A stretch of 64,000 nt of DNA from contig MQRK01218062.1 in assembly GCA_001938485.1 (NCBI GenBank), positions 6,643 to 70,642 of the forward strand, read 5' to 3'. The position numbers and the translations under genes were made by a program. This DNA is from Girardia tigrina (lineage: Eukaryota). Positions 1 through 64,000 of the stretch are shown here, piece by piece. The notes under the pieces are model-generated. The model worked only from the letters and a program-made list of their open reading frames with translations, made no database searches and was not told the DNA's origin. Within the stretch, counting starts at the first letter, position 1. Each line of letters begins with the position of its first letter.

Positions 1-180
1 TTTTGATTAGCATGATTTCATGCAACCGATTACATCATCATCATTTTTGTATTTATATACAGGTGAATTGATTATTAATTAGTGACCTGAAGATGACGGT
101 AGATCCGTCGAAATATATTGTCGTAAAATATATTTTTGTAAATAGATTCCAATTTGAAGAGTTTTTACAATATGAAACAG
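1..180 (+). mobile_element. Penelope-like element 3' pseudo-LTR fragment
   Basis: Contains a minimal hammerhead; flanks resemble the pLTRs that follow GIY-YIG ORFs at 10690-10790, 56460-56600 and 63110-63250. Confidence 0.65.
82..124 (+). ncRNA. Minimal type I hammerhead ribozyme
   Basis: gtgac-CTGAAGA-t-gacgg-tagat-ccgtc-GAAA-tata-T-T-gtcgt: full core, 5-bp stem II, palindromic ATATAT helix III, stem I gtgac/gtcgt. Confidence 0.85.
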
Positions 181-559
181 AAATAAATTTTCTTTTGAAA
201 ACCGTATTATATTTTAAGATTACCGGGAAAGAGAGACAAAATTATTGTTAAGAGAACATTTGACAGTTTATTAATTATTCACAAATTTGATCATCTCTAT
301 GGCGATCAATAGTGTGGCTTTCACTTAAATCTGTGAACTATCAGTGTTTTCTTCGCACCAACATTTTGGTACGAACGACACACATCACCACAAAACAAAA
401 TGAAATACAAGTGGGCACCCAACCAACAGACAGAAACTAAAAAATATCAATATCCAAACACAATTTTTTAACAAATGAAAAGACAGAAAGGATATAACAT
501 TCAGCAAACGTAACCAAATCATTAATTTGAAGTTAATATTTCAATCAGATTTTGAGCCA

Positions 560-1100
560 GATTAGTGGTTTGAATAGATTCTTTTCCTTTAGCAACTATG
601 ATGCCATCTCTATCAACAGATAAGACAATCTTTTACGGTTGGTGGTCTTTGTGATTAGTAATCGGCTGCTAACAGCCAAGATCCCCACCTTGTAACAACT
701 GGCTCCGGTGGACTTCCTATAATAGAGAATCTACTCTTATTTTTAATAGTAAGTGCTTTAATGCTTGATATGAGATTGCTGATGTCTTTACAATATAATT
801 TGATCATAAGAGCACAATTGTAAATTATTTCTTGATATATCCATCTTACGAAGATTGTCATCAGTGATTTGCATTATAAAATGGCATTTGGACTAGAATC
901 TATAGACCTGCAATCAATAAGAAAGCACAAAGATGGAGTAGAAATATCTCCGATCAGTGTATTGACATATTTTGGTTGTTAACATCAGATCTACACTTTG
1001 AAACTAAGGAGTTAGTAAGAAGCTCTTTAATACTTTGCTGATGAATTTTGTACAGTGGCATATCAGCTTGCATAGACGCTATAGTAACTTTATAAGCCTG
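560..1100 (-). mobile_element. hAT-like (DUF659/CGGBP-type) transposase remnant
   Basis: ORF 655-861 ends PPEPVVTRWGSWLLAADY, matching the PPEPxxTRWGxWL motif; surrounding frames are broken. Confidence 0.6.
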
Positions 1101-5200: not shown

Positions 5201-5365
5201 TACGAACAAATTTTTGAAATGACTAAAAATGACATTTCTAGTAAGATTTGATAAATCAAAATTCGTATATAACTTATCCGTGTGTTATAGATTTATTCTG
5301 CTCAATGGTTAATGAATTCCATATTATTTTATCATTATTTAATTTAAATTCTAAAAATTTTGAAA

Positions 5366-5553
5366 ATAATATGATATGTATACATCAGTGTAGTTTTTTG
5401 ATTTAATTATATTTGTGAAATCACATAGCAATTTTTATAATTTCACTTTTTTTCCAATTTTTCCGGTCCCAAATTTGTGAAATTATAAAAATTGCTATGT
5501 GATTTCACATGTATAATTAAATCAAAAAACAACACTGATATATATCATATTAT
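5366..5553. repeat. Inverted repeat (~80-bp arms) at the 3' end of the pogo element
   Basis: 5366-5446 pairs with 5477-5553; the ATAATTTCAC motif is shared with the pogo 5' end near 8370-8390. Confidence 0.85.
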
Positions 5554-5641
5554 ATTATTAATCCACCAAATAAAAAAAATTAGTATAAAAAATCCAATAT
5601 AATCATAACAAGAAAATCCTCAAATCATACAGTCATAAAAA

Positions 5642-8410
5642 TCATAAATCAAAATAATCGAAGAGTGTCTTTTGCTTTAAATTTTTGCTTCTAATTTGAT
5701 TAATAACAATTTTCAATCTTTTTAATATTCTAATTTCATTATTGCTATTTTGTTCTTGTTCCTCTAAAAAAATTATCAATGACATGTACATGCATTTGTT
5801 GCTTCTTTATAAGTCATGGGAATTATATGACTCTATGAAGAAGAAGATTCATGTTTCCAAAAATTCATCATTTAAATTGTTTGTTAATTCATCATTATTT
5901 AACTCAACATTTAGTTTATACTCTTCTCTATCTACAACCTCTTCAATAAAAATAAATTCTTCGACTGTCATTGGATCACTAACATTAATCTTCTTAATCA
6001 AGTCTTCTAATTCTTTTTCGTCCTTTCGAGCAATGCTTATCTTGTTTAGTGAACTCTATTCAGACTTGATACGTTTCGTATATGTGAAGGACAGGTTCAA
6101 TCTTAAAAATTTTGAAATAATTAATTTTAAAAATAATTTTAAAAAGTTATTTTCGGAAATAATTAAATATTAATTGTAGAGTAAAAACTTAAAATGAAAT
6201 TAATTGGGAGATAATGATTTTTTAAAATAAATATATAAAGATATATATATATATATATATATACGATAAATAAATATATAAGGATAATTATGTTTGTATT
6301 AATTTTAAAAGTTATTCCGAAAAATAAAATAATGAACTTTTTGTTGCCAGAGATGTAATTTAAAGAAAAACAGATCATTTTAAATTTTAAAGTCAGTTTG
6401 AAATTCCGCAAATTAAAGATTTGACAAATACTTCATTCTATACAGTTTCCGTAAAAAATAAAAATTAAAACTTTTATCATTAATGTATCGTAATAATAAT
6501 AATAAATTTGAATATTGTAAATTATTTTTTGTATTTACATTGTATTTAAAATTTGTATTGTATTTAAAATTGTATATTTTTGTATTTAAAATAATTGTAT
6601 ATAATAAAATGCCTTTAAATTGAAATTCTGATAATAAATAAAACGTTGAAATCTTTTATTAATTAAAAACGTTTTCAAAAATAAAATAACATTAAACTAA
6701 TTCTAAAGTAATAAAAAATCATTTTTGTTAATTTAGTAAAAATATGACTACAATAAATTATGTTGATTTAATTTAAATTAAATTGCATAAAATAGTGGGA
6801 TGTAAATTTTCAAAATGAAGAGAATAAAAAAATATTCAATTTTAAAATAGCTTATCAGTATTTATAATTTCATATTTTTATATATAAACAACAAAGACAA
6901 GTTCCACGACGAAAAATTGTTTAAATAATTGTTATTTGTGTTAGAAATAAAATTTTGGTGTTAATGAATCTTAATTTTGATCAAGAAATCAACAGTATGC
7001 TTCCAACAATTTTGAATAGTTTCAGCGGATACATCCTCCCACGCACTAACAACATATTTAATTGCTTGTAATAAATTAAGTTTATTATTAATAATGCCAT
7101 TATTATCTGCCAAAGAACCAAGTAGATAATTTAAAAATCTTTTTCGATATTTTCTTTTGAATGATGCAATGATTCGAGTGGTTGTAACCTCGCGGTTGTA
7201 TTGGGCAGCCAAACATGAACATTTATAGATTTTAAGTTCATATCATTAACATTATGTGGTGATTCGTTATCAAGAAATAATATAATCTTCTTATTTTCAT
7301 CTTTCTTGAAAATTTCATTATCAAATTTCTAAACCACTCTCTAAATATTAATGTTGTCATCCACGCTTTTGTATTTGATTTGTAAATGCAAAATAAGTTT
7401 TCCAAATAATTATTTTTAAAACATCGTGGGTTTTGAGACTTTCCTATGATGAGTGGCTCACATTTCACTGTTCCCGTTCCATTTGTACATAAAGTTATAG
7501 TTATGCACTCTTTATCTTTTTTATTACCAGTTATTCTCTTAGATGCTAATATTTTGTCAGGCTCTAATCGGTAGTAAACTGCTGTTTCTTCAAAATTATA
7601 AACTTCATTAGGATCGTATTGGCTTATTAAATTTTAGGAAATAGGTAAGGATTCATTAACAAGATTTTCATCTACCTTTCCTACCTCTCCGTGAATGTTT
7701 CGTTTTTTTAATCCCATGTCTTTGTTTGAAGCCTGTGAGCCATCCATCTGAAAAATTAATTCTTTCATTTTCCGGAATGAGTAATTTATCACATATTCTT
7801 TTTCCTTGATTAGAAATCATTTAATCAGTTATTATCAATCTCCCTTCGTTTGTATAAAACCATTCAATCAAATCTTTTTCTAATTGTGGATGCCTGATAT
7901 TACCAGTTATAAATGAATTTGGATTCACTATCTGGCTTATTTCGATATCAAATTGAGGAGAATTAACGATTTTAGGGACAGTCGATTGATCAATGGTTTT
8001 CTTAAATTCTTTCTTAATCCAGGAAACGAATTGTTCATGTGTTAGTTTCTTGTTAGCGTTGGAGTGTTTGTAGAGTTTTGCTATTTCCGCTATGGTGAGT
8101 GAAACATTGCACTTCTTAATATGGACCATGTTTTGATGGGTTCTGATTTGTTAAATTTATTTAAAAATTTTGAAAATAAGCAATTAAATTAAATTGATTG
8201 AAATATTTAAACAATGATGACAAATTATTTTTCAAAAGTCAAATAGTGCTCATCAAATTTAATTAGGTTAGTATGAAATTATCAAATTGTGAAATTAAAA
8301 AAAAATTTACGCCTAAAAACATAAGGACACATGATTTTTTTCCAAAAAAGTGGGAAATTGTCCAATTGTGAAATTATCGAGCGTGAAAATAGATAGAGCT
8401 GATAGAGTTA
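5642..8410 (-). mobile_element. Decayed pogo/Tigger DNA transposon
   Basis: CENP-B-type HTH (HPQLEKDLIEWF), PLIIGKSQNPRCFK, KAWMTTLIFREW and AWEDVSAETIQNCWKH motifs; acidic tail and terminal QKTLFDYF PIP-box at 5651-5674; many stops and frameshifts. Confidence 0.9.
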
Positions 8411-9189: not shown

Positions 9190-9964
9190 CAACTTTTAAA
9201 ATTTGTTTTTGTTATTAATTTTAGAATCCATTTTTTTGTCTAAAATAGAGAAAAATATAAACTTGTTTCCTTGATACGAACCACTTATTTATCAAAGGTA
9301 CGTAGATGATATGTTTTCAATTTTAAAAATCGAAATCATGTTAAACCATTTCTTAATAACAGGAATTCCCTCCATTCCAGTATAAAATTTACCGTAGAGC
9401 AATAAGTACTCTACAATTCCTAGATTTACTGATAAATAGAAAATCTATTCGCTATGGAACTCAGATTTACAGAAAGAAAACTGACACGGGATTGTACACA
9501 ACTCCGATTAGTTTCTGTGAATATCGGTATTTAGAACACCAATTTGACACCTCATATTTTTATTAACACAACTGGTTTGATTGTCCTTAAGGCAATCTTT
9601 GTCAAAACTTTCATACGAGTGCATTCTAACTAAATTGATTTATGACTTAATTCTTATAATTTTTTAGCAAATGGAGAAATAAATAATTAATTAAAATATT
9701 TACTCAAAACTTATTAGATAAAAATTAAAATGATTATTAATTATTTAAAAAATAGTAATTAGATTTATTTATTAAAAATTGTCAAAGTAATTAATTTATT
9801 TAAAATTTTACAATTATTTTAAATTAAAAATAAATTTAAACATTACATATTTTTAGATAAGAAGAATTCAAATATTAATCATCCATCTGGGTAGGAGAGA
9901 CACATTTCCAAATCAACATACACATTCAAACACAAAACATCAAACATTCAAAATATTCCTCACA
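9190..9964 (-). mobile_element. One end of a TGT...ACA long-TIR element (Ginger/TDD-like) with a decayed Cys-rich ORF
   Basis: TIR 9870-9964 ends CCTCACA and matches the MITE at 31160-31593; inward ORF MHSYESFDKDCLKDNQTSCVNKNMRCQ starts ~9625. Confidence 0.6.
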
Positions 9965-10239
9965 ATAGGTTATAAAACAATATTAATAAATGTTTAATTT
10001 ATCGATCGAGGTCTTTCGTCAACACACATTAAACTGTTGAAAGTATCAGTAAAGTAACAAGTTTATTGAATAAAAATTGATGGTCAAAATCTTATATTGA
10101 AAAATTGAACTCGTAAAATATTAGATAAAATATTAAATGAGTTAACTAATGTTAATAGTAATTCTGACGAAATAACCACAGTATTTGCAATTTTTTTTAA
10201 TTCAAATATGAGCAATAACAACCCTCCTGAATCAAGTAA

Positions 10240-10790
10240 AATTTTATCAGTTCCTTATTTAGCGGGTTTTAAAAACTTTAAAATCATTGATTTTGAAAAA
10301 TATCATTCCAAATATGATGAATTTAAAATTAATATTTCAATAGTATAATATTATGCATGTGTTTAGTAATATATCCTCAACACCTTTCGGTTTATGTCCC
10401 GATCTCGTTTATGAATATACTTGTAATGCGTATAACACCACATACATTAGACAGACTTCCTGTCATCTCTGCAAACGGATCAAAAAGCATAACTGATTGG
10501 ATAATGGGAGCAATATTGGTGAAAATTGTGAAGAGAATGTCAAAGAAAGTAACTTTTAAACTCTATTTAATCGAATTAAAGATTATTTGGAGAGAGTGAC
10601 ATGTGAGGATTTATTAATAAGATCAATGGATCAAAGAATTAATATTAAAGTTCCACATTCAACTTCTTTGTTGAACAATTTCAGATAGAACCTGATGACA
10701 TTATTGATTACAAGTTATATAATTATATTGCTTTGTTAAATAAGCAACAGAATTAATGTTAATTGTAGTCTGAAGATGGCGGGCAATCCA
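10240..10790 (+). mobile_element. PLE 3' fragment: GIY-YIG endonuclease remnant plus pLTR, hammerhead truncated by a gap
   Basis: Frameshifted SVPY..., DLVYEYTCNA, TYIRQTSCHLCKRIKKH, DYLERVTCE; CTGAAGA-tggcgg-gcaat-cc at 10770-10790 runs into Ns. Confidence 0.85.
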
Positions 10791-12149: not shown

Positions 12150-12300
12150 GACAAAATTTCTTAATAAAAGTCCAGTCTTTTCAAATGAATTATTTCCAAA
12201 ACAAGTAATTAATTTCCATGGATCACCCGTCATCATCATGCAAAACAAATGATGAATAAAACTATACATTCATGTGAAATTAACACTGATACCGACTCGA
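12150..12300 (-). mobile_element. PLE pLTR with degenerate hammerhead (12203-12243)
   Basis: Minus strand aTGATGA-t-gacgg-gtgat-ccatg-GAAA-ttaa-T-T; first core C is mutated and stem II is mismatched. Confidence 0.6.
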
Positions 12301-14302: not shown

Positions 14303-14409
14303 TAATATAAATATATAATTATATAAAATGTTTATTTTATATAATTATATAAAAATAAAATTTTTTTTTACTTTTTCGATTTGAATGAAAATTTTAATTG
14401 ATTCCGAAA

Positions 14410-20360: not shown

Positions 20361-20555
20361 CTGTGAACAAGCCCTTTGATCATACCCTCTCTGTATTTTT
20401 CCTCACAAAAACTCTGTGGTGTTGTGTAAAGACCTGTATCTGTTGCCTTTCTGAATAATTCAGTTTTATAGCCCCCATTGCTGATGATGATTTTTTAAAA
20501 ATCGAAACATGTCCAATAGTTGTATTAAAAAAGCTTTAATCAAATTATATTTTCG

Positions 20556-20558
<3 letters not shown>
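20361..20558 (+). mobile_element. PLE 3' pLTR ending in (TA)n
   Basis: Hammerhead plus a tail duplicated at 23959-24018; bounded by (TA)n at 19456-19503 (across a gap) and 20559-20592. Confidence 0.75.
20477..20517 (+). ncRNA. Minimal type I hammerhead ribozyme
   Basis: attg-CTGATGA-t-gatttt-tta-aaaatc-GAAA-catg-T-C-caat: intact core, GUC cleavage triplet, palindromic ACATGT helix III. Confidence 0.9.
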
Positions 20559-23601: not shown

Positions 23602-23957
23602 TAACACTTTTTTATTTTAAATTTTTATTTAAAAACATGTTTGGTCACTTTTATGGTATCTTCAGTTCTATATTTAAGTAAAAAGTTATTGTTTATATAG
23701 TTAGATGACCATTAAATCCCAGTGCTACGCAAAAATACTCTAATATGATTGCATGAATTACTTTGCACATTTAAATTATGTTTATAAAACATTATTAATA
23801 TTGCTTCAGTAATTGTCCTTTCATAATTATGATCAAATTTATTAATCAAAACCCGAAAATCATTATCATATACCATTCTATGAATTTTATTTCGAGTTTT
23901 TTCTACTTGATTGGGTATGTTCTGCATTTCTAGTACGGTGGTGTTGTCAAATGCCAC
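23597..23957 (-). mobile_element. PLE 3' end: GIY-YIG C-terminus plus degenerate hammerhead (23631-23669), abutting (TA)n
   Basis: ORF 23712-23957 DFRVL...ERTITEAILI...NLNVQ; then CTGAAGA...aaa-catg-TT on the minus strand. Confidence 0.8.
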
Positions 23958-23958: not shown

Positions 23959-24040
23959 ATCGAAACATGTCCAATAGTTGTATTAAAAAAGCTTTAATCA
24001 AATTATATTTTCGAAATACTAAACTTGCGTTCACAAGACT

Positions 24041-24045
<5 letters not shown>
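23959..24045 (+). mobile_element. 5'-truncated pLTR tail of the 20361-20558 PLE family
   Basis: 60-nt identity to 20501-20560, beginning inside the hammerhead (atcGAAAcatgtc) and ending in (TA)n. Confidence 0.8.
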
Positions 24046-24084: not shown

Positions 24085-24512
24085 CTAGAACTGATAATGG
24101 CATTTTTATTAATAACGAAAAGAAAGGACATTTTTGAATATTAAATTTATTCCCAATACATATGCGTTTCACCATTTCGGCATCTTCAGTGCAATGAAAT
24201 AAAGTGATTAATTGCTATTTATATAGTTGAAAACTATTACATCATACGTCTCAAAAACATGCTTTTTTTTCTTCTTAAAAAAAGAAAAGTATTTTAATGA
24301 TATTTTAAAAAACTTTAGTATGATTAGATGAATCACCTTGCACGTTTAAGCATTAGAGTTAGAAACAAATATTCTAATGCTTAAACGTGCAAAGTGATTC
24401 ATCTAATCATATTAAAGTTTTTTAAAATATCATTAAAAATACTTTTCTTTTTTTTAAAGAAGAAAAAAAGCATGTTTTTGAGACGTATGATGTAATAGTT
24501 TTTCAACTATAT
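24081..24512. mobile_element. Fold-back (inverted pLTR) mini-PLE with hammerhead at 24150-24195 (-)
   Basis: Arms 24221-24357 and 24373-24512 are reverse complements; each encodes the PLE ORF end LNVQ.DSSNH.KVF*; CTGAAGA-t-gcc-gaaat-ggt-GAAAC...GTA on the minus strand; flanked by (TA)n. Confidence 0.8.
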
Positions 24513-38522: not shown

Positions 38523-39799
38523 TTACCACACAAAACTGTTAAAAGTTGTACTTAAAACGAAAACGTAAATACGTTCTTGGATGATTGTTTTTTCTCTACC
38601 AAAACGAAATATTTTATAAAAGAAGAATTACGATTATATATTTTATTGAGGAAAGTGTATATTTTGTTTTAAAAAAAATCGTTTTTAATTTTAGAATAAT
38701 TATATTTAATTTTTTCTTATTAAAATTGTAATAAAATTTTCTTTTCAAATGGAAATGAGTCTGGTTTTCCATATGTAATTAAAAAGTGCAAATTATTATT
38801 CAGATTTGCTTCAATCCGTATTTCAGTCCTGTTCCCAAAAGTCTCTCTTCGCCCTCGCCAGAGATTTCGTCCTCAAATGGGACCATTAATTTGTTTGACT
38901 TTACCAAGCCGAATTGATTTATTTTTGATGATTTATTTTAAACATGTTTCCTATGTTTATTCATTTATCGTTCTCTTTACATTTATTAAAAATCGCAAAA
39001 TTATTATTTATAAATAAAAATATTATTAATAATAATATTTATAAATTAAGATTTGATAAAAAATTATTTATTTAATATATTCAATGTTGTGTTTATCATA
39101 TCCAAACAAAAAAGCGTGGTGGTTGACCTGAAACGATACCAATTCATATATCGATGGCTCTGTTATTATTTTTGGCAGAATTGCCAAATTTTGTGTATAT
39201 ATAAATTTATATTATTTTTATTTATTATTTTTCTTTTAGTGTTTTTATTTCAGTCAAAAAAATTGGACATTGACAAATTAAATAGACAAATTTAATTAAA
39301 AAGAACATATATATATATATATATATATATGTAATAATGAATATAATATCAATGAAATAAGAAATATAATATATAAATAATATATAAATTAATAAGGTAC
39401 ATAAAGAAAAACGATAAATCTTTCAAATAATCAAAAACGCTATTTGGAACTAAAAATATTAATTAATCTTAAAATTTTCATTTTTTTCTAGTTTTATTAC
39501 AGTGGATTTTCCATCATCTCGAGGCAAAATTTTCAACAATTATACCACCTTATAAATATAAATATACAATCAACGTGTGTAATAGCTAATGAAATACTTT
39601 CAACAAAGGTGAAGAGAGACTTGTCTAAACATTAATTGATGGATAAAGTAATTTGATCAATAATGCCTCCCTGGAGACCCTCTCCCAATAATTTTGAAAA
39701 TTACTGCACAGTAACTGAACTTTTGCATACGAAGGAGACAATAGATAAATTAATAAATAAAAATTCAAGGAATAGATGAATTAAAACCTGAAAGCATCT

Positions 39800-40290
39800 T
39801 ATGGAGATTCAAATATTGGAAACAATTTTTTTGTTCCCTATTCAGCAGATTTGAAAAAAATTAACTCATGTATTTAAAAATCAATTGATCAAAAGACCTT
39901 AAATTTAAAAATCATATCGAAATCTCACAAAATTCAAAGTATGTTTAGATTTAAATCTCCAACTCCTTTTAATTTATGCTCCAATCTTGTTTACCAATTT
40001 TCTAGTAATGCGTGCAATGCCAGATACATTGGAGAGACTTGTCGTTATCTCTGTATGCGGAGCCGAAGCACAGACGATTGGATAATGCCAGTTTTAAGGT
40101 CAAATGTGATGATGCTGTGCAGTAATTTTAAAAATTATTGGGAGATCATCTCTTGTGAGGGATTATTTAACAAATCACTTTATCCTTCAATTAATGTGCA
40201 AACAAGCCTCTTTTCCACTTTGTTGAACGTATATAATTAACTATTACACAGGTCGATTACATAACAACTATTTATATTTTTATATAAAGT
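39800..40290 (+). mobile_element. PLE GIY-YIG remnant
   Basis: FVPYS...; ORF 39941-40240 NLVYQFSSNACNARYIGETCRYL...NYWEIISCEGL...PSINVQ. Confidence 0.85.
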
Positions 40291-41517
40291 AGTACAATCG
40301 ATGAATATTATTTTTTTATTAATTAATAATTAAAGCTTTTATATTACATTATTTATTGAAAAGTTTTTAATAAGTAAGTATTCCATGAAAAAATAACCAT
40401 ATTAAAATAAGCCACAAAAACTAGATCACAGATCAGCAATAAAAGCTTCATAAAAAAGCACTTTAAGTAGAAATATGACATTCACAAACTGTGAATCGCA
40501 TCCCTGTGCTAACATAATAATATATTTGGTAAATAAATAAATTATCAATGATAACAAAAACACATATATATTATTCATTAAAGTAGAAGGACAAAAAGTA
40601 TTACAAACAAACATAAATGAAAAAAATATCAACGTGTTTATGAGTACTTTCATTTAGAAATTGAAAACTGGAAGTACTCTCATGTACATATTATATACAA
40701 ACAGTATACTAAAATCTTTCCCCTCAAAGTATTTTCTGCAAAACATAACACATTATATCAATCATATCTTTACAAAATGTTCATTTGCAGGAAGCGTTTT
40801 CTTGTTGTTCTTCTTTCGTTGAATCTTTTTGTTGAGAGTACTTTTGCGACTCCTTGATCAATTTTCAAACGCTAATGCTGCCCATCAAGTTTTCTTTCCA
40901 ATCATAATCATTTCGTCCACAGTTTGGTCTCATTCATTTCTCCTACGCTCATTCAAAGGTATGGAAAAGAACCTCTTCTCCGTCTTCCGCTTCACAATCA
41001 CAAATTCTAGCCCTAAAGTTGTTAGTTTATAAATAGTTTATAATCCAAATCAATTAAGATTAAATGGGGTCAAAAACTTTTTATTTTCATTTTTAAATAA
41101 ACTCTTACAAAAATTTTTAAAATCAAATCAAAATAAAATTTTTTATAATCAAAATTGATACATTTCTTTTACTTTTTAAATAATAAAATTTTATTAAATA
41201 AAATTAACTTTTCTTTTATCTTATTTTTTAAATAATTTTAATTCTAAAAATTTTTTTAAAAAATATATTAAATTCTCAAACATTCAGTTGGACCTGTATT
41301 GCTGAACACTTTCAATACTCAAATAATAAAACTTAACTGTTAATCGTCCTATAACTAATGTTTTAGGATCATACCCTTGAAAGTAAGTAACTTGGTCTTC
41401 TTCCAATAAAAATGCAAAGTTCTAGCATGAAAATTAATTAATTCGAATCAAATTTAATAAATAAATCTTTATTATGATTTCTTACTTTTATCAAAAATAA
41501 CGATTATTTACTTTCAG

Positions 41518-47600: not shown

Positions 47601-50600
47601 ATTAAATTAAAATTTATTAAAATAATCTTATTTTATGTTTTTTTTAATAATGAAAAATAGAGGTTTTACTAAAATTTTAGAGATGTTATTTCTAAATAAA
47701 CTATCGGTTATCTGTTTGAATGGTCATTGTCGTAACTTCATAACAGGAGATACCATTTAAAGTACTTTGAATTAATTGATGTTTAACTTGATATCGAGTC
47801 ACCCGTAGGAGGGTATCGGATTGCAGTTGATCGGGGCCCTGTTTACCGACCAGCCGCGTATGCTCAGACTTTTCAGACAAAAATAAATAAAATATCTTAA
47901 TCATATTTTTTCATTTGATCTTGGGATCGAGTTTGAATGATATAATTTAGTTATTTTAATCATCAGTCATTTACTCCAGTGGTTTTAATTATATAAAATT
48001 ATTTATATATATATAATATTATGTAATATTTATAATATAATATATAATATAATATAATAAGAATATAATATATAATATAATATTTATAAATATAATATTT
48101 AACTTTATTATATCCATAAACGTTTTGAGTTTTTCATAGTTTAATAATAATGTCAAAATAAATCGTATGTAATAATTTATTTGTTATTTAAAATTCTTTA
48201 TGATAAATTATTTACAAATTTCGTTTTCGAAAAAGATTGTTTATTTAAAAATATATTTACTAATTATATATTTTGACGTATTTACCGTTATCAGATATCT
48301 CATTAGAAGTTTGTGACTGCTTATATCATAAAAATAAACTTGATCTTTTCTTTTATTTTATATCATGTCTTACAAGTTTTCCTAAGCTCAAGAATACGAC
48401 TTTTACCGTTTTTTGTACTTTGATACAGAATTAACGAGAAATACCTTCATATTACAACCCAAACATTGTTTTTTTAAAGGTTTCAATAACTTAGAAAACG
48501 GGCAAATACCTTAAGTATTCTTCCTAATCATTAGACTGCTTTCAAAAAGGAGAGTGATCATAATCCTTGTTTTATTTATAAAAAATCTATCAAGCTTAAC
48601 AATTTCAAACATAATTATTTTTAATATTGAAGTAATTTAAAACATTTTTCTCGACATTATATATCAAAAATTCAAAAAAAGCAAGTTATAATGCAAAATA
48701 TTTACTGAAAATTTAATATAAAACAACATTAAAAGTTGAGTAAATAAAAATATCACTTAAAAAAAGAAAGTTTCATTAAAATTGAAATAAAATTTGTTTC
48801 AACGTGTTTCTTACAGCAAACATTTGATACGTTTAATGAGTTTAAAAAATAAACAATTGATTAAATAAACAATTTTATGAAGAAATTGAAACTATAATAA
48901 ATTATAATTATAATCGAAATAATATACATTTTTTAAAAAAAATCATAAAAATTTTATAAATTTAAACCATTCAAAATAAATATTTTTATTATAAAAATAG
49001 AAAAAAAATAGAAATCAATTTATTTTCAGAATATTTTTGTAACTATTAAAGAAAACAGTTTCTTGTTAATTAAATTTAATTTCAGAAATTAATTTTAAAT
49101 TTAATTAATTTTTAATTTAATTTTAAATTAATTTCTAAAATTTAATATTTGAAGCGCATAAAATATAAAAATCCTTTCATTAAAATAATAAGAAAAGAAA
49201 CAACTGATATATCTTTGATTCGAAAACCTTCATCCCAAGGTACGGATCCTCAAACATCCAAGGTCGTGAAGACTCGAACAAGGGTATGGATCTCCAATTG
49301 AATTTTTGTAGTTTTAAATACATATGAAATTCTAATATTCCATTTTTCATATTTTTCTCGATTATTAAACTATTACAATAAAATAAAAAATAAAATAAAA
49401 TAGACTACTTATAAAAAACGATTTATTTTTTAAAATATTTATATTATTATTTTTCATTAAATTAAATTCAAATATTTTTTTATTTAGAAATTATTAAAAA
49501 GTTCAAAAAATATATCTTTTTTATGTACTAAGTTTACGTAAAAGATGTGAAAGATTTATAAAATTAAAAGTAAATTTAAAATTAGTTTGTTTAAATGGTG
49601 AAATGTTATATTATAAATTACAGTTTAGATAGTAAAATATTGCGCAGTTATGGCAGTATTGTGCAATTTGTAATTTATTTATATGTACAAGAACATTGAC
49701 ACTGAAAAATGGTTGTCTTCTTTTCCTTCTTTTTTTATACCGATTTTATATTATGATTTTGAGAGGATTCTGAATTTATACCTTTACACGTATATAAATT
49801 CCCAATAATGATAAAAAATATAATATAATCCTGTTAAGTTATTAACAAAATCGATTTAATAAAATGACAAAAATAATATTAAATGTCACATTTAAATGAA
49901 ATAAATCATAAATATTTTTTAGATAGTAATATTATTTTCATAAATAAATCACATTTGAAATTAATATTAATTTACTTTGAAAATTATTTTTTTCTATATC
50001 CACCAAAAATAATTAATAATATTTCTGCATTAATTAATAATATTTATTTATTTTATTTTTATTTATTTTTCATAAATAAAAAAGAGATTTTTATAAAAAT
50101 TTTTCATATATTAAAATTAAATTAAATTATATATAAATATAAGTAAATGAAAAATGATGTGAAGCGGCGGAAAGTAAAACTCGGCATCAATTAGTGGAAA
50201 ATATATTTTCTATTTATCTTTCAAACAAGCAACATGTGTTGTTAATATATCAATCAATAATGCGATTTTTATATTATATTATATTTTTCGTACACTTTTA
50301 AATATGAAAATTAAGAAAAAAAATAAAAAATTTCAGTTTTATTATTATTAGCATTTACAAAAAAATTTTTTATAAATATGTTTTGAAAAAATATTTAAAA
50401 ATTTTACATTTGGAAAGAATTCAAATTATTATTGAAATTAAATAAATTATGCAAAATAAAAACTGCACAAAATAAATTCAAATTCATTATCTGTATTTGA
50501 AATACTTATCAATTAAATAAATAAAATAAATAAATATAAAAAATATATTTTAATAAAATATAAATGAAATAAAAAGTAAAATGCATACTGATTTCATTTA

Positions 50601-53600
50601 TATTAATTATAATATTTAATGTTTATGTGAGGTATGTTTTAATTGTAAAAAAATAATATTTTCAGAAAATGCTGAATTTCTGGAAGCTTTTCAAACAAAT
50701 AATGAAGTTTATTTTGTTGTTTCCGAACCGGTTTCTGCTAAGAGTCATAGTATTACTGAGTGTCTAATGTCTACCGATAGCAGAACAATTTATGTTACGA
50801 GGATTATAAGAATTTGCAAGAAAGACGAAGGAGGAGTTGTTGGACATAACGAAATTAATTTCGGAACAGCTGCCAAAGCAAATTTAATTTGTCCAATCGG
50901 TGTCGGAAAAGATCAATTTTTATATGCCCGGGCATTAAGTGCAACGTGGGCCAATTCCAAATTATATATTCTTTTCAAAAACCAGAAGTAATACATATAT
51001 AATTAATTTATTTAAAAAGTTCATTATCAAGTAATTGAACTGCATGAAAGTAAAAAAAACAACATTAATGCACAAAATTAACAAAAAATAATAACATATT
51101 ATTTAATTTAATAATTAATTAAATGTAAAAAGTATATTTAAATAATTTCAAAAAATTATAAATTTTAAAACTTTATTATTTATTTAAATATATAATTTTA
51201 AAAATTCATAGTTTAAAAATTTTTATCTTTTTTTAATAATTATTAGTTAAAATATTAGTTATTATTATTATTAGTTTTTTATATCAATAAAAAATAATAG
51301 TTTAACATTATTTGTTTGAATAATTTAAATTCTTCTGACAGAAAAAAAATAATAAATAAATTACTAAAACATTTCAGAAATTTATGCAAATGTGTAAAGC
51401 TTTCCTCATTTAATCAGAAAAAAATATTTATTCATTTTTTTAATTTCATTTATTTTTAATAATTATTAATTAACCTTTTATCGAAAAATAAAACTCAAAT
51501 ATTTAAACCTATATTAAAATCGATAAAAAATATAAATTAATTTTTTTTACAATTTAAAAATAATTTATCTTTTTTATGGATTTTTTTATCGAGGTTTAAA
51601 TTGTTTTTTAATAAAATATATTTTGGTATATTTTTGAGAATTAAAAAAAAACATTTGACTCAATAAATACCACGATCAATTTAAACAACATCGACTGATA
51701 GAAAGTTAAATGCCAAACAATGAAAAGTAAATTTCACATGTCACATTAAATAAAAGACTTAAAAATCGATATTTTATCTTATATTTTATTGTTATAATTT
51801 TTATTTTTATTAGAAATTCTCCTGAAGGAAAAGTGTTGTGTTACTATGATAATTTTGCATTTATTAAAGCGTTCAATGGACCGATGAGACCACCATGGAT
51901 TTTTCCAAATTCTCAAAAGAATGACCAAACAATTAAGAATCCTTTACTGGATGTGGTAATTTGTTTTCATCTTGTTCAAAACTGCACGTAAAGTTATAAT
52001 TTTACTAGTGCAAAAAGCTTGAGAAAGGGTCCTTGACCGATGATCAACGCACAGTAGCGGCATCACTTTCAGTGAATGGCCTGTACAGAGATCTAAATAT
52101 TATTCCAGTGACAGAAAACCCGTTAATAAACATAGGTTCACGAAGAGTCTCCATGATAAAAGCTTTTGAGACTGGAATTGATGATTCGTCAACGATATTA
52201 ATTTTAACAGACAACAGATTCTTAGAAATATATAGTCATAATGAATATCATGAAGTTTGCGGAGTAGGTTCCTTCGAATTACGAGAGGATGAAATAGTTC
52301 ACCAAATAACGGGGTCAAACATCGATTCAGTAAGTGTCATTGAATTTCGTTTAAATATTCATTTTTTTGTTTAAATATATACATAGTTGTCGGGATCGGG
52401 AAAAAATAAATTACGAAAAAGAATTCAAAGCTTTGAGTAAAAATTTTGACACAAATTTCGAGCGGATGATCACTAAGCAATTAAACCCATGCTTAAATAT
52501 ACAAAGTGATTTATCTAAACATGTTAAAGTATTTTAAAAAATATGGAAAGTATTTATGGTGTAACAGTCAGAAAACCATTTAAATGACTTGTAATTTTGT
52601 TTAAATATTCATTTTAAATGATGATACCTGTAAAGGCGAAACTTGTTTTACGAAGTAAAATTATTGATAAATGGTATTGTTGTTTTATCTAAGTTGACAT
52701 TAAGCCTTATTAAAAACGATATAATATTAGGTTGGTCGAAAAATAATGGCGGTTTTGGGACACAAACTTCAAAGACGTGCAAATTCACAGAAACAAAAGT
52801 TTATTAATCAAAACATGAACCGTTGGCATCAATACATTTTTGCCAACGAGAAACAAGTTGTTTTATTCCATCAGCATAAAATGCATCGGTTCTCGAAGCG
52901 ACGAATTCTTGGAAGGCATTTTGAGCATCATTNNNNNNNNNNNNNNNNNNNNNNNNNNNNNNNNNNNNNNNNNNNNNNNNNNNNNNNNNNNNNNNNNNNN
53001 NNNNNNNNNNNNNNNNNNNNNNNNNNNNNNNNNNNNNNNNNNNNNNNNNNNNNNNNNNNNNNNNNNNNNNNNNNNNNNNNNNNNNNNNNNNNNNNNNNNN
53101 NNNNNNNNNNNNNNNNNNNNNNNNNNNNNNNNNNNNNNNNNNNNNNNNNNNNNNNNNNNNNNNNNNNNNNNNNNNNNNNNNNNNNNNNNNNNNNNNNNNN
53201 NNNNNNNNNNNNNNNNNNNNNNNNNNNNNNNNNNNNNNNNNNNNNNNNNNNNNNNNNNNNNNNNNNNNNNNNNNNNNNNNNNNNNNNNNNNNNNNNNNNN
53301 NNNNNNNNNNNNNNNNNNNNNNNNNNNNNNNNNNNNNNNNNNNNNNNNNNNNNNNNNNNNNNNNNNNNNNNNNNNNNNNNNNNNNNNNNNNNNNNNNNNN
53401 NNNNNNNNNNNNNNNNNNNNNNNNNNNNNNNNNNNNNNNNNNNNNNNNNNNNNNNNNNNNNNNNNNNNNNNNNNNNNNNNNNNNNNNNNNNNNNNNNNNN
53501 NNNNNNNNNNNNNNNNNNNNNNNNNNNNNNNNNNNNNNNNNACAGCAATATGTTAATAATGGCTATAGGAATATACAACTAGGCATAAGATTTCAAATAA

Positions 53601-54162: not shown

Positions 54163-54194
<32 letters not shown>

Positions 54195-57100
54195 GTTATT
54201 TTAAGGCAAATTAGTATTCGTCTAAAATATATTTATTGAAATACATTTTCATATCTGTATATAAAAATTAAAAATTAGATGCACAAGGTTTTTCCTGCGG
54301 AATCATTTTTAATAATCCATAGTAATAGTTATGTAGTTTTATTTTGTCTTATTTTTATATATTTTTTCATACATTTACTGTTTTTAGGAGGTTTAATATA
54401 GTATTGAAGAGGGAATTGTGATTTAAATAATAATTGTATTATTTTAATGGTACGATTGTATTAGCGATAATTGTATATTTAAATATGATTTTCACTGTTT
54501 ACAGCTAAAGAAGAAATTAATAACCCGATCAATATTAAATAATATTATATATTAAAAAATTATTTTAAAAATATTATAAATAATATTAAAAAACGGATAC
54601 AAGATATTTTATAAGTTTAATTTTTCAAATATTTTGATAAAATGATTTGAAGAAATTTTAAGTTAATAAAATAGTTAGTAAATTAAGTTAAAAAAACGAA
54701 ATAAATGGATTATTTAAAAATTATTTTTTTAAAATTTTATATAGAGTAAATTGATAACATTTGAACGAGTAATAAAAATATGTATAAATTTTAACAAAGA
54801 TTCAAAGAATAAATATTTTTAGAATGAAGTAAAAAAATAAAACATAAAATATTTAACTAGAAAAAACCAATTAAAAATAAATAAAAATATTCAAAATAAA
54901 GGTCAAATGAAAATGTCGATTTTATATTAAAAAAAATTTGAAAAATAAATAATATCAAAATATTTAAATGTAAAATTTTTTCTTTGCTTTTTAAATTTAA
55001 TTAATTGGTTTTTTTAAATATTTAATTTAATAAATTATACATAAATCATAGTTTCAATGAAGTTTACAATATCTTTTCTGAATTTTGACATGAATATGAT
55101 TATATTTACTTGATGCTCCTTGGAAAATTATTATAAAGAAAGTCTTTTTACTTCTAATTCATTAATTAAAAGAGAAAAAAAGGATAAACCGAAAGAAAAT
55201 TTTCAGTCGACTGGGGAAAGAAATCGAAGAGTGATTTATTTGGGCCGCTTCAAACTTTATAAAAAGAAAGAAAATTCTTTTTTAATTGTTCATTAATTTA
55301 TATCATTTGCCTGTCTCAGTAAATATCATTTTGCATTAAAAGGAAACGTTGATTGCCTTTGATGTCCATGTGGCAATCGTCGACCGGTATCCTATTCCAC
55401 CAACAACTGCTTTTGCATGGAAATTAACATTGAAGCCAAATCTTTTTTTTGATAATTAGACGCAATTTTAGACGTCTTTTTAACAACAAAAAATACATTT
55501 CGATGTGTATTTTTTCAATTTTTTGTCGATTTTACATTACAAATTATTTTTTTAAAAATGTTTTAATAAGAAAAATAAAAAATTTTGTCTATATAAAAAT
55601 TGTTTTTATTTTTATTGAAAAATAAAAAATAATTTCATTTTGTTTCCCAACAAAGAAATTCTGTCTGTTATTTTTACCGTCCCCCCTCGAGAAAAACCAA
55701 AGAAAAATAATAAAAATTTAATCTTTTCTTTCTTTTTCTATTTTATATAAACGAATTTCATTATCGAAATAGTAAATCATTTTTGTTATCGAAATAAGGA
55801 TGACATAAAAATGTCAAAAGTTTGAATTTTTTATTTAATTAAAATTTATTTTTTATTATTTATTAAAATTTATTGAAAAATATATTTTTGATTTGTTTTT
55901 TTAACGTAAATAATACGAAAAAAATTTTAAAGATTGAATTGTTTTTAATTATTATTTTTAATTTTTATTTTAATTAATTATTTTAAAAAATAAATTTAAA
56001 ATGAATGATTAAAAAATTCATTAGATAAAATTTAATAAAAAATAAAAGATAATAATATTCAATTGTTAAGGATTTTAATTCATTTTCTTAATTATTTTTT
56101 TACATCATAAAAAACAAATAATCTGTATTTAAATAAATAAAAGACATCTGTTTTTAATCTGTTTTTTTTCCAAGGAGTTATTGAGACCGGTCAATGGAGT
56201 GCTTGGAGCTCATGGTCGAAATGTTCAGGAGAAACGAAACATAAAAAACGACAAAGACTATGTACCAGTAAAATTCAATGCGTTGGAAACGGAGAAGAGT
56301 TCTTGCGTTGTTCCGATCCAATTAATGATGGTTTGTTATAAAAGTTTCTTTAAATTTATTATAAAATGCATATATATATATATATATATACATATATATG
56401 TTGATTTAAATATTTGAAAAATTATTATGAATTATCTTTAAGACTTAAAACGATCATCAAAATTTAGTGCGATTAATTTCAACGGATCAACCATCATCAT
56501 CAAGCGAAACTAGATCAATACTAAAATACTGACCTTTATATATCGAAAGTTAGTTTACATAATCATTGCATAATTATTACAACATCAGAATATTTTCAAT
56601 AAAGTAGAAGAGGATTGTGTTTACACGTTGATTTTTGGATCAAGAGTCTTAATCGTCAGTGCTTCCCACGTCCCCCTCTCCCAGTAATTATAAAATTGTG
56701 AAAACAAAATTTTAAAGTTACTTAAATTTACACAATCTAAACATTTCATTCTATGTTGAGCAATATAACTATCACCCTCTTTTCGATTATGTTCCTGAAT
56801 CCATTTACAGAGATGGTGACAAGTCTCTCCAATGTATGTGGCGTCACACCCATTACATTTTAACTGGTAAACTAAATTTGAACGTAAATCGTTATGAGTG
56901 GTTGATTTACTGCTAAAAATACTTCTTTCTTTACTTGACTTAGAAAGGATTTTCATAGTTTAATAAATTATCTTTGTCAAATTTTATAATCAAATTCTTG
57001 AATAACTTGAAATCCTCAGAAAAGATACCTTTAAAATTTAATCACAACATAAATTAATCGTTTCACACAAGGAATTTTGGTGAAAAAATTTACAATATCA

Positions 57101-60100
57101 GAAGAAACCAGTAAGTTATTCCTCGATTCAAGATTAGAAAGCAGTTCAAAAATTCAAAACTATCCCGGCAAGTATTTTGATGATCGCTTTTCGTCCTATA
57201 TATATGTTTTATATTAACATATAGATTTGTATGACAAGTATTCCTATGATCCATATAAGCTAGTAAATAATGCGCATTTTCTAAATACCATTTTGAAACA
57301 AGTGTACCATAAACAAATACAAGTAAGCGAAATAATCTTTCATTCATTAACTCGCATTAAAGTTTTTGTTTTCATTGCACCAACAGATAATTTTGTTAAA
57401 AGTTTTAGTTTAATAAGTAAATCTCTAATAATCTCTCATCGTTTATTTTTAATACGAAAAAGACAATTATCTAAGAGATTAATGCGGCAGAATTTGTATC
57501 ATGGAGGGGCTGGATATTTATGTTCATCAGCATCATTCTTCTCAAATGTAGATTCAAAACTCATAAAATTTAGAAAATACAGAGACAAAAGGAAGAAGCC
57601 ATTTTACCTTCCATTTATCTTGGAAGAGAGATCTCAGATGTTTCTAATGATTTTCCTAGTCACTAGTCAGTCACCTAGAATCTCGCTGACCGGATGTTTA
57701 TCACTTAAAATATTATTACTGTGACTTTATTTCAACTTATTCACTATTTAAAGTCAGTCTTTGTACCAAATATTCGATTCATTGACTGGTCAAATATTCA
57801 AATTGAATATATGAGAACGCTATTGCATTAATATTGTAATGCGGCTCATCACAAAATGGTGGCTGCCAAAAATTAATCTTCAAATCGGTTAAAACATATT
57901 GCATCACGCATCAAAAAGAGAGATGTAAACAGCACATTACAAACATTAGTTACAGTGTAACTATATCAACGAAGGTTTCTGCCATTGCGGTTAAGACCAT
58001 TTAATTATATCAGATTCTATTATTTGTCTACTTCAGCGAATATCTGTCCAGAAATGGTTTACCAAGTTTATATCAGATGTCAGTGCTTATCTCTTCACAT
58101 TACTGATCATGTTTTTATGTTTTAAATTAGCTTGCTTTCTATATATATATATATATATATATATATTCATGGAATTTAGAAACCTTTTTTTGAAGGCCTT
58201 CAACTCAATCAATTTTCTCCTGTCTTTGCACATCTACTCATTTTCGATGACAATAAATGATAATGTGAAAATTTGATCAAAAAATTAATTAAGTTAACTA
58301 AATTTCAATTTTCTATTTTCCAAACATTTTACAATAGACGAGACGTGTATGTGTTACTGTTTCCACGAATTTGGTTGGCCAAGTAGAGCTCTGCCCACAT
58401 AAGGCATGGATATAAAAAATTGTTTTTGATTTACAAGTTCAATGAAAATTCGAGTTAATAAATCTCACATAGTTCTTTCAATTGTGAAAAAGTAAGTTAA
58501 GACCTAGATAAGTGTTATCAACGCTAAACTGAACGAGAAATACTTCTTTATGACAAGCAACCCTATCGTCTCAGTGATTTCAGTTTCAGGACAGAATATG
58601 TACAGTAGAATGTTTTAATATTAACATGACCTAAGAAACACGGGCTGTTAATTACCTTGATTACATTACAACATAACGTTTATTTAAACGAAAAATTATG
58701 TCACGGAGAAAAATTTCAGGTCGTCAGCTTGCAGAGACGTAGCTCCCAGTGGGCATATTTCGGATCGGGTTCCAGCATCGTATCTTTGCTCGGTCGACAG
58801 TCCAGAAAAGGCTTCCGTTCTGACGTGATTAGTCTTTCAGTCCGTGTTTGATATATCGTCTGATCGTTGTTCTTTTCCCCGAGCGCGGCAGGATCCATTT
58901 GTTGTCATGTATTGTCATTTCAATCTCGACTAGGTTAAGTTAATAACCAATTTGTATCGTAGCCATTTGTTCAATCGATTTTATTTTATGGACACTTAGA
59001 CCTCGTTAATTAGGCCCTTGGGGTCACTGAAGGTCCAGAGCGTGCTGCAGAACGTTGTATTAACAGTGCCGGTTATCCCCTTTCGGATGTTTTTATACTG
59101 CAAGTCCAGAGCGGTCCATAATAGGACGTTGAGTCAGCAGGGTGTTTACTTCTTGTCCCTGAAGTTTATCCATCGATATGAACGGTGCCTCGAACATAAG
59201 TAAGGGTCTAATTGCGTTTTGGATGCTGAGCATCCTGTCGAGATTGAATGATCAGATCGTCTGCTGAAAAGCAATTATTTTCTTCAAGGAGAAATTAAAC
59301 TGCCAGAAAAGAACATATCAAATATCAGTTCTTATCCAATTGGAATACAGTGATTGACGAAATTGCAGAAGATACTCCCGTTGCTTGAAGTAGGTCCCGC
59401 GGATAACGATGGTCCAACCCTGAATGATATATCAACCGCCCAAACTATTCTGCACAAATTTAACAGGAGTAGTTCAGGCTTATTAATACACAATATACTG
59501 AGTAGACACTAAAATATGCACACAGGCAACATTTATTATTTCAATCTCGCATCACGCGTGCACTAATGTGACAAAGTCCACCAAGAGGGTCGTAGTTCCA
59601 GAATGCGCACAACATTTTAACAGCATTCTTTAATGTCCCCCTCCGCAAATGACGCACTCAAGATTACAGCCAATAACAAATTTCAATAGTAATCTCAAGT
59701 GTTCACCAGAATGCGTACAACATTTTAACAACATTCATAGTTACTACCGCCATTTACCAGCGCTTAATTGAATTTCTTCACATTGACATTCATGGCACTG
59801 GGCAGAAATCACATTGCGTCAAAGCCGTTCACCAGCCATCGCAATGCTTTTTGATTACATTGAGAAATTATTATAATTATAAATTATTCTAAAATAATAA
59901 AATCAATGACAAATATGCATAAATTAATAATAAAAAACAACTCCTATATATCAGAAGTAAAGAATCTTTTGAAACCAAATTCAGATTTCCTTTACAAGTG
60001 AATAGGCCAAAACTTAGTGTCTGATTCCCAAAGTCAACAAGCAAATTAATCTTGTCCAACTATTCCTTAATTAAAAATGGTTCATAATTCGAATACAGAA

Positions 60101-63055: not shown

Positions 63056-63109
63056 GTAATTATTATTTTAAATGTTAATAAATTGAAATAAAATTGGCAA
63101 GTTATTAAT

Positions 63110-64000
63110 ATCAAAACTTGAGAGCCAATTAAAAACGTTTATTAATTTCGACGGTTTAACCGTCATCGTCAGAACAAATGATTTTTCAAACGAAATTTAC
63201 TTATATAGTGCAGTTAATGATTATGCAATCAATACGTAATCAGTACATCATTTAAAAACTCTCAACAAAGTTGTAGAGAGTGCAGTTTGAATGTTAATTT
63301 TAGGATCCAAAGATCTAATATATAACGCTTCACACGTCACTCTCTCCCAATAATTTTTAAATTGAGTGCACAGAATTTTAAAGTGTTGTGAATTTATATC
63401 TCCTTTACATTGTCTTCTATGTCCTGCAATGTTACTTCCACCTTCATTACGACTGTGTTCCTGGATTCTCTTACAGAGATGACGTGAAGTCTCTCCAATG
63501 TATGTGGCGTTACACCCATTACATGTATATTGGTAAATGAGATCCGAACACAATCCCAATGGCGTTGGAGTTTTATTGCCGAACATGTTTTCAATTTTCT
63601 GGGTACGGGATATTACTTTTTAATTTTGAAACATTCATAATTAAAAAATTAAACAAAGTTTCAACCTTGGATTGAAGTTTAAATTTATTAATTTTCTTTC
63701 TAATTCCATGCTTTGGACCATACTTTAATATATTTAATTCATCATCGGTTAAATCAATGTTACTTAAGTTTAAAACAGTATTTTTAACATTAAATTTAAA
63801 AACACCAAACAATTTCNNNNNNNNNNNNNNNNNNNNNNNNNNNNNNNNNNNNNNNNNNNNNNNNNNNNNNNNNNNNNNNNNNNNNNNNNNNNNNNNNNNN
63901 NNNNNATAACAAAAATCACCACTTACATTATTAAGGAGGTTTCGATTGATTGTCAGAAGTCTGATAATTTCGTTTCGTCTTTGCTTTTCTTTTTCCAACA
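63110..64000 (-). mobile_element. Internally deleted PLE (N-terminal region joined to GIY-YIG, no RT) with pLTR
   Basis: 63591-63998 VLNLSNIDLTDDELNILKYG; 63248-63586 IYQYTCNGCNATYIGETSRHLCKRIQEH...ERVTCEALYI...PKINIQ. Confidence 0.9.
63135..63176 (-). ncRNA. Minimal type I hammerhead ribozyme
   Basis: tgtt-CTGACGA-t-gacggt-taa-accgtc-GAAA-ttaa-T-A-aacg: intact core, 6-bp stem II, palindromic ATTAAT helix III; ~70 nt after the GIY-YIG stop. Confidence 0.88.

Follow-up and report, generated by a model that had tools for sequence, protein, structure and literature searches.

Hammerhead ribozyme motifs at the ends of truncated Penelope-like elements in a 64-kb stretch of Girardia tigrina DNA

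Hammerhead motifs and associated coding remnants

A 64-kb stretch of Girardia tigrina DNA (contig MQRK01218062.1, positions 6,643 to 70,642; 26% G+C, ten N gaps), referred to over its whole length as the window, was found to contain twelve hammerhead ribozyme motifs or remnants, of which three are intact and one nearly so; six are decayed (two of them tentatively assigned), a gap hides one, and one is a half copy. The best explanation, to which we assign a probability of roughly 0.85, is that these are standard type I hammerheads in the pseudo-long terminal repeats (pLTRs) of Penelope/Poseidon-like members of the Penelope-like elements (PLEs); independent insertions from at least seven families, 5'-truncated or internally deleted, brought them in, and they are decaying together with their elements. 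A density of about a dozen remnants per 64 kb points to a genome with PLEs at very high copy number, and the motifs provide further examples of a feature known in PLEs across animals since 2014.

An earlier, sequence-only reading had listed at least eight motifs by their low coordinates, and all eight were found in place; positions are here quoted as C3 of the CUGAnGA box (87+, 10770+, 12239-, 20481+, 23665-, 24189-, 56503- and 63172-). The number was an undercount, with four more remnants present (52618+, 48294-, 39523- and the half copy 23959+). Hammerhead numbering and the NUH rule for the cleavage triplet follow in part the usual convention for this ribozyme. The twelve motifs are:

82..124 (+): intact hammerhead, palindrome ATATAT, predicted cut after 119 (C3 at 87; found with the strict descriptor), flanks on both sides aligning with group A 3' ends
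10770..10790 (+): 5' half of a hammerhead; the first box is intact and the motif then runs into a 132-N gap (10791-10922)
12203..12243 (-): decayed hammerhead, A at C3 (12239), ATTAAT, stems broken
20477..20557 (+): intact hammerhead and short end abutting (TA)n, ACATGT, triplet GUC (C3 at 20481)
23631..23668 (-): decayed hammerhead, C at G12, stem II broken, ACATGT, end abutting (TA)n at 23596 (C3 at 23665)
23959..24045 (+): 3' half of a hammerhead of the 20481 family, with an end about 30 nt longer that abuts (TA)n
24157..24193 (-): nearly intact hammerhead with perfect core, end abutting (TA)n at 24081 (C3 at 24189)
39495..39527 (-): heavily decayed remnant (C3 at about 39523), assigned by position only, 69 nt past an endonuclease end
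48257..48302 (-): probable decayed relative of the 87 copy (tentative), ATATAT, 3-nt loss in the core
52615..52650 (+): decayed hammerhead, A at C3 (52618), ACTTGT, 84 nt past an endonuclease end
56467..56507 (-): decayed hammerhead, U at C3 (56503), ATTAAT, end abutting (TA)n at 56389
63136..63176 (-): intact hammerhead, ATTAAT, triplet AUA, predicted cut after 63140 (C3 at 63172)

A strict descriptor, requiring a perfect core, at least 4 pairs in stem II, at least 3 pairs in stem I and a palindrome, matched three times in the window (87, 20481 and 63172) and not once in any of 127 shuffles keeping the local dinucleotide content; the same three copies had previously been judged catalytically intact, which their sequences bear out, with the caveat that in 20481 three of the four bases in the 5' strand of stem I coincide with a fused antisense fragment of reverse transcriptase (RT). 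Stems I and II comprise 5 and 5 bp in the 87 copy (triplet AUU) and 4 and 6 bp in both 20481 and 63172. For 63172 the descriptor favored an alternative register with a 2-nt helix III, and the 6-nt register was used as it matches the other copies. The cleavage site predicted from the 20481 sequence, after 20513, coincides with that proposed before.

PLE coding remnants were identified at the following places in the window, named where possible after the nearest RT-endonuclease protein:

9209..10685 (+): decayed P0002-like fragment covering RT, thumb and GIY-YIG, carrying stops and frameshifts and interrupted at about 9531-9978
20363..20479 (-): RT fragment, 39 of 39 residues identical to P0011
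23733..23946 (-): frameshifted C-terminal GIY-YIG fragment, P0013-like
24221..24512 (both strands): inverted duplication of an endonuclease C-terminus and 3' untranslated region (UTR), P0016-like
39589..40309 (both strands): inverted pair of P0003-like endonuclease fragments, 39589-39717 (-) and 39791-40237 (+)
52367..52534 (+): C-terminal GIY-YIG fragment, nearest to P0016 at 50%
56588..57173 (-): P0005-like endonuclease and short RT piece, joined through an internal deletion
63251..63815 (-): open GIY-YIG domain of 123 codons, P0001-like, joined to an N-terminal PLE segment

Five motifs had been described as lying just downstream of a GIY-YIG end, and this holds for 10770, 23665, 24189, 56503 and 63172, at 85, 68, 119, 85 and 79 nt, respectively, counted from the last endonuclease codon (for 24189 the remnant is 15 codons only). 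Across the window, seven of nine endonuclease C-termini are followed by a motif or remnant 68-119 nt downstream; one of the other two enters a gap and one is cut short. The element ends share one order: endonuclease C-terminus, a UTR of 68-119 nt, hammerhead, and a short end that is often located at (TA)n. Five ends abut (TA)n, at 69, 77, 107, 108 and 114 nt from C3. These distances form two classes 30-40 nt apart, with two copies of one family differing by 30, which fits both the optional tail described for PLEs (PMC8557442) and the two start sites of reverse transcription reported for an anole element (PMC11167929).

Inverted second copies are found at three places, 20477, 24221-24512 and 39589-40309. 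The 20481 motif is antisense to the P0011 RT fragment and joined to it via three shared bases, and it is an inverted 5' copy of a P0011 element; the RT fragment continues into a gap of 857 N (19504-20360), a size that would fit the missing remainder of the element. Within 24221-24512, codons at 24308-24352 on the minus strand are mirrored at 24378-24422 on the plus strand, and the plus arm enters an 89-N gap (24513-24601) just ahead of the expected hammerhead place. This segment was also considered as a miniature inverted-repeat transposable element (MITE), which was rejected because it encodes a PLE endonuclease end, and the microRNA-like Rfam matches at 24247-24429 are in fact this inverted PLE end. 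The plus copy of the third pair, with coding sequence to 40237, ends at 40309, just before the place where its hammerhead is expected. An inverted 5'-truncated copy and an optional tail of 30-40 nt, both traits of Penelope/Poseidon elements, are accordingly both present.

Two of the coding remnants are internal-deletion derivatives (63627-63815 with 63251-63625, and 57058-57173 with 56588-57043), in which most or all of the RT has been lost while the endonuclease end and the hammerhead are kept. In the former, the N-terminal PLE segment (63627-63815) is directly fused to the GIY-YIG domain (Pfam E 2.8e-6), with the RT deleted. The open frames 63248-63619 and 56621-56959 both match Pfam GIY-YIG above the curated cut-off. 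A further short PLE RT fragment is isolated at 14429-14623 (+), without an associated hammerhead.

Structure and covariation of the motifs

Both core boxes, CUGAnGA and GAAA, are perfect in 87, 20481, 24189 and 63172; one change each is found in 12239, 23665 and 56503, and the second box of 10770 is hidden. Eight copies were parsed. All eight carry a U as extra base between positions 9 and 10.1, and the H of the NUH triplet is never G. The three intact copies have G-C as their 10.1-11.1 pair, 56503 and 24189 have G-U, and the pair is broken in 12239, 23665 and 52618. Helix III had been described as usually a 6-nt palindrome, in agreement with the perfect 6-mers in six of the seven listed copies with a visible site (six of the eight parsed copies); 24189 and 52618 pair at 4/6 positions, the former with ACGCAT and stems of 4 and 4 bp. 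In 56503 stem I is reduced to 2 bp and stem II has two CpG-type changes.

The copies had been called minimal hammerheads, a kind carried by PLE pLTRs and proposed to cleave as dimers. The type I topology, the pLTR location and the dimer logic are supported, and the copies represent a variant with a 6-nt palindrome: the strict minimal form has only bases 15.2 and 16.2 between A15.1 and U16.1, whereas four bases are present here in all copies. The canonical type I hammerhead of Rfam, with a 6-bp helix I and loop contacts, likewise differs from these motifs, in which stem I has 3-5 bp.

Stems I and II were both said to differ between copies, which is true of stem I throughout; stem II is largely one sequence. 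Among five aligned copies of equal length, all four stem I pairs show two-sided changes, while stem II is GACGG/CCGTC, intact or decayed, in four of the five. All two-sided changes in stem II come from one copy (20481), and the others depart by unpaired or G-U changes of the CpG-decay type, so that stem II differs only between three broad groups of copies. In the whole alignment 88% of the cells are paired and 9 of 12 pairs show two-sided changes, values as high being reached in 0 of 500 shuffles and all slid controls being lower.

Families and clade

Several Penelope-like families had been proposed, and at least seven are present. The six listed copies with adjoining coding sequence have six different nearest proteins: P0002 for 10770 (89/136), P0001 for 63172 (94/124), P0005 for 56503 (85/122), P0013 for 23665 (39/52), P0016 for 24189 (14/15 identical) and P0011 for 20481 (39/39). 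For 39523 the nearest is P0003 (32/44), and 52618 has none closer than 50%. In a tree of 34 rows, in which the 15-residue fragment was excluded, three rows covered less than half of the columns and three reference rows lacked the endonuclease, starred branches supported the pairings of 10770, 56503, 39523 and 23665, whereas 63172 and 52618 were unresolved.

RVT_1 was detected in all six relatives scanned and GIY-YIG in three of the six, and fragments in the order RT then C-terminal GIY-YIG are found at 9209-10685. A CX2-5CxxC linker finger, which is found in Neptune and Nematis (PMC8557442), was not seen by inspection of P0001-P0004, P0008, P0011-P0013, P0016 and P0026. The families here have the CCHH motif, read directly in the 63172 and 56503 domains and in relatives, and no linker finger, which corresponds to the Penelope/Poseidon pattern under the definitions of the same source. 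Judged by their sequences, the elements are truncated Penelope/Poseidon-like elements, marked by inverted ends, (TA)n targets and tails of 30-40 nt.

Comparison with known systems

PLE hammerheads are known from across the animals, in several families per genome and for the most part as solo copies belonging to truncated PLEs (PMC4209133). The window copies agree with that description in the type I topology, the extra base between 9 and 10.1, the G10.1-C11.1 pair, a stem I of 3-5 bp and stem II of 5-6 bp, as well as in the 6-nt palindrome, the solo position at the 3' end of truncated PLEs, the several families and the opposite-strand second copy. By count, 29 of the 56 rows in Fig. S3 of that paper have ACGU, and 6-nt palindromes occur in rows from Drosophila, Adineta, shrimp and Oikopleura; the 87 copy has AUAUAU followed by U, as do three Drosophila rows. 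Unlike in the published set, 6-nt palindromes are the rule in all window families seen, and none of the 56 rows, in the machine-read text of the figure, has AUUAAU or ACAUGU. Compared to the strict minimal form with its 4-nt ACGU, the core, the bulged base, the dimer logic and the PLE context are alike, while every window copy has two extra palindromic bases.

The Poseidon element PAc from Anolis carolinensis (PMC11167929) resembles the window elements in encoding an RT and, at the C-terminus, a GIY-YIG with CxxC in its core, in its pLTR hammerhead, in an ATG at the base of stem II, in AT-rich targets and in two end points about 30-40 nt apart. In contrast, the window holds no full-length open reading frame (ORF), and an ORF start within the motif is only putative here.

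Non-LTR retrozymes (PMC7229834; bioRxiv 10.64898/2026.07.22.740005) also carry type I hammerheads related to those of PLE pLTRs. These are however tandem non-coding repeats of 150-450 bp, whereas the window copies are solo and attached to coding remnants. A retrozyme origin was rejected: among 62 tandem-repeat rows only a 161-nt unit (38108-38412) is in the 150-450 range, and it has no hammerhead.

Nine contigs (L001-L009) in bacterial or archaeal genome bins encode clear PLE relatives (E 5e-31 or better), most likely representing eukaryotic contamination of prokaryotic bins. These nine of 51 loci constituted the outside scan, the remaining 42 (L010-L051) being weak prokaryotic RT-motif matches (E 5e-6 or worse). 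In six of the nine a hammerhead follows the endonuclease end, with seven motifs in total, six of them with ACGT and one with ACTGCAGT; of the six ACGT motifs, three are near-identical and stem from a single bin, two of the seven carry a U3-A8 core variant, and one locus has an inverted arrangement. Of these contigs, L001 and L008 are short, and no match was obtained in L009.

Proposed mechanism and decay

A helix III of one pair cannot support cleavage, and two copies swap strands and pair via the palindrome (PMC4209133); a helix III with one pair closing four bases hence points to dimer cleavage. In such a strand-swapped dimer the core and the 5' strand of stem I would be supplied by one RNA and the cleaved strand by the other. 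As stem I is formed across two RNAs in the published dimer geometry, the partner must match in both stem I and palindrome, and would in practice be of the same family. In the same study the tested monomer was inactive and dimers weakly active, the low activity probably requiring the element's protein.

Reverse transcription would begin on uncleaved RNA, downstream of the hammerhead, at either of two sites, as suggested by the anole element (PMC11167929), which would explain why every truncated copy carries one hammerhead; a second, inverted cDNA would give the head-to-head arrangements. All complete copies span the cleavage site, and their template RNA must therefore have been uncut or religated, in agreement with reports of normal in vitro insertion by ribozyme mutants and of protein-dependent cleavage (PMC11167929).

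The visible sequence contains no same-strand tandem of motifs from one family; two motifs lie close together on one strand only at 24189/23665, which are cross-family. The solo copies would thus lack a partner of their own family in cis, which makes even the intact ones probably silent relics. Integrity of the motif tracks that of the coding sequence: 20481 (39/39), 63172 (open domain) and 24189 (14/15) have intact or nearly intact motifs, and decay affects both motif and coding part in 56503, 23665, 39523 and 52618. Such a correlation is expected for neutral decay after insertion, and neutrally decaying relics are what the sequences most likely represent.

Several observations weigh against a hammerhead-bearing pLTR of Penelope/Poseidon-like elements as the explanation. 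No full-length element or pLTR-ORF-pLTR tandem is visible, the copies being truncated, deleted or cut by gaps or the window ends, and three gaps may hide more copies. Three motifs have no adjoining coding part: 87, whose upstream side runs off the window; 12239, which sits in a pLTR piece at about 12165-12299; and 48294. The covariation count is based on five related sequences aligned by design, monomer folding energies are not better than those of shuffles (z -0.98 to +1.17), and for the three intact copies the double-hammerhead fold lies 5.5-10.4 kcal/mol above the predicted best dimer fold. The clade was assigned from motifs, without named reference elements, and two tests gave no support for an ORF starting at the ATG inside the motif.

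Alternative roles of the motif

The motifs might instead owe their retention mainly to protein binding or dual coding (promoter, start codon and first codons), with cleavage dispensable. This we regard as unlikely, although it is compatible with the pLTR hammerhead explanation and several features speak for it. In most copies A9-U-G10.1 spells ATG, with the shared stem II giving M-T-x-x-P-S-K in frame. The ORF of the anole element starts at stem II, its ribozyme mutants show normal insertion in vitro, and no reads ended at the cut site (PMC11167929). TATATA is located 33-39 nt upstream of C3 in five of ten window copies (87, 23665, 24189, 56503 and 63172) compared to 1.6% of random positions, and such a TATA-like box would place the start site at about stem I. 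At this distance it is found in none of the seven outside motifs, one of which has TATATA at 43 nt. However, the covariation of stem I and the palindrome is of the kind that a catalytic dimer requires, and the peptides downstream of the in-motif ATG are no better than random on N-terminal profiles (at most 3.3 bits, below the best of 600 random controls); for the 53-residue peptide from position 93, no relative was found among 11 candidates. Dual coding is one possible reason for the shared stem II.

A second alternative concerns partner choice, with palindrome and stem I as a selected self-recognition system preventing cross-cleavage or co-packaging between families. The pairing matrix is diagonal, with a mean of 3.1 stem I pairs with self and 0.41 across (23 pairs in 56 cells, one cell with 3 or more); for the three intact copies, 4-5 pairs form with self and 0-1 across. 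Formation from folded monomers, without tertiary terms, was predicted to cost +1.2, +1.4 and +2.6 kcal/mol for the intact homodimers and +6.0, +7.6 and +11.3 kcal/mol for the heterodimers. A permutation null also puts the cross value low (0.7% of 5000), but this null is biased since the diagonal excess forces an off-diagonal deficit, and under a composition-only null the value is ordinary (23% of 5000). Moreover, self-pairing is demanded by the fold anyway, and eight copies, half of them decayed, are too few; selection for self-recognition thus seems a rather improbable addition. Partner choice probably rests on stem I plus palindrome, as far as can be read from the sequences, with compensatory drift sufficing, and the combined rule is probably an unselected consequence of the dimer.

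The proposal that the palindromes alone are family-specific pairing codes does not stand up, and we consider it very unlikely. There are three perfect and one imperfect type of 6-mer, two-sided changes keep self-complementarity at two of three pairs, the three intact copies have three different palindromes, and in Fig. S3 of PMC4209133 some families from the same genome differ (Adineta, Nematostella, Aedes). Yet two palindromes are each common to different families: ATTAAT is found in 63172 (P0001-like) and 56503 (P0005-like), with endonuclease fragments 56% identical, and also in 12239, and ACATGT in the P0011 and P0013-like families (70/164 identical). Non-identical palindromes still pair at 3 to 5 of 6 positions, ATATAT and ACATGT reaching 5/6 via a G-U pair, whereas copies with the same palindrome form only 0-1 bp in stem I in seven of eight directed pairs, the exception being 12239/56503 with 3 bp. 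In addition, six of seven outside motifs have ACGT, and five same-genome pairs in Fig. S3 share ACGU while others differ. Heterodimers are predicted inactive mainly because stem I cannot form across families, and such a failure would give the palindrome no credit. No published palindrome code or heterodimer test appeared among titles and abstract openings, which is weak evidence of absence. Co-resident families with a common palindrome but different stem I separate the two contributions to partner choice, and offer a sharper test of what PLE hammerheads are for.

It is similarly doubtful that the double hammerhead serves as an RNA-RNA dimerization signal, by which element RNAs would be brought onto a dimeric PLE protein, both (TA)n strands primed and the insertion made head to head. 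If the dimer did choose the RNAs that take part in twin priming, this would account for the inverted ends that PLEs typically show; at present there is weak evidence for it. Here palindrome and stem I would pick the partner, and the segment 23596-24045, in which a P0013-like half and a P0011-family half, both with ACATGT, stand head-to-head between two (TA)n runs, would be the footprint of a heterodimer formed via the shared palindrome, a suggestion to which we give equally little credence. A frameshift and a broken core mark the P0013-like half as decayed, whereas its counterpart is identical to 20501-20560 at 60/60 nt, making two separate insertions at a (TA)n hotspot likelier; across the two halves stem I forms 0-1 bp, and with four palindromes a shared one is no surprise by chance.

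Detection statistics

With looser descriptors the background rises: dropping the palindrome with an intact core gave four matches (24189 added; shuffle mean 0.04), permitting one core mismatch likewise four (56503 added; shuffle mean 0.14), and the loosest setting six, at chance level with 3.3 per shuffle. At that setting the decayed copies are not significant by motif alone, and their assignment therefore rests on position or homology. The alignment score of 12239 against 63172 or 56503 was reached by 0 of 500 shuffles, whereas the pairwise alignments of 39523 were not significant (83 and 90 of 500 shuffles equally high).

A model built from the five aligned copies, which recovers those five by construction and has rough E-values, gave 37 matches at E up to 10. 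The new ones were 52618+ (E 0.028) and 48294- (E 0.14; 1 of 500 shuffles as high, with a similar peptide); the other 30 had E 0.7 or worse, 24189 among them at 0.86, and 23665, 10770 and 39523 were missed. An Rfam scan gave no hammerhead family among nine matches at E up to 10. A match to the U3-A8 core variant at 43575 was rejected as pure A/T sequence.

Chance matches in AT-rich DNA, to which the yield of the loosest descriptor, the Rfam result and the weakness of 39523 and 48294 by themselves might point, are refuted for the intact and endonuclease-anchored copies by the absence of strict matches from all shuffles and the fixed distance from endonuclease ends, and are possible for 48294, leaving this explanation of the motifs as a whole with next to no credibility.

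Genomic surroundings

The window is animal-type and repeat-rich, with Tc1/mariner and pogo-like transposase pieces, a gag-protease remnant, a histone H2B remnant and exons with PSI and thrombospondin matches. The H2B remnant (12390-12600, minus strand; Pfam E 1.2e-7, PDB E about 1e-24) is cut before the C-terminal helix; it shares the orientation of the 12239 hammerhead, which follows about 90 nt downstream, and no PLE coding sequence accompanies it. The remnant may be host RNA that a PLE captured, or a neighbor by chance. Scattered exons at about 50620-63078 (+), with weak semaphorin matches (E about 0.5), PSI at the cut-off and thrombospondin-like repeats, suggest a semaphorin-5-like host gene (a tentative name), the introns of which would hold three of the elements. 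From the exon strands, the 63172 copy appears to be antisense within this gene, in which case host transcription would not fold its motif. Other repeats in the window are:

1992-2255, 5365-5559 and 31160-31593: long inverted repeats, MITE-like
7238-8150: pogo-like DDE_1 remnant
12954-14310 and 32770-34079: two elements of mariner type, ends inverted
16560-18248 (+): LTR retrotransposon remnant with fragmented gag (zinc knuckle) and aspartic protease
35527-36766 and 60718-62153: two Tc1-like DNA transposon copies, 95% identical
38108-38524: 161-nt tandem repeat

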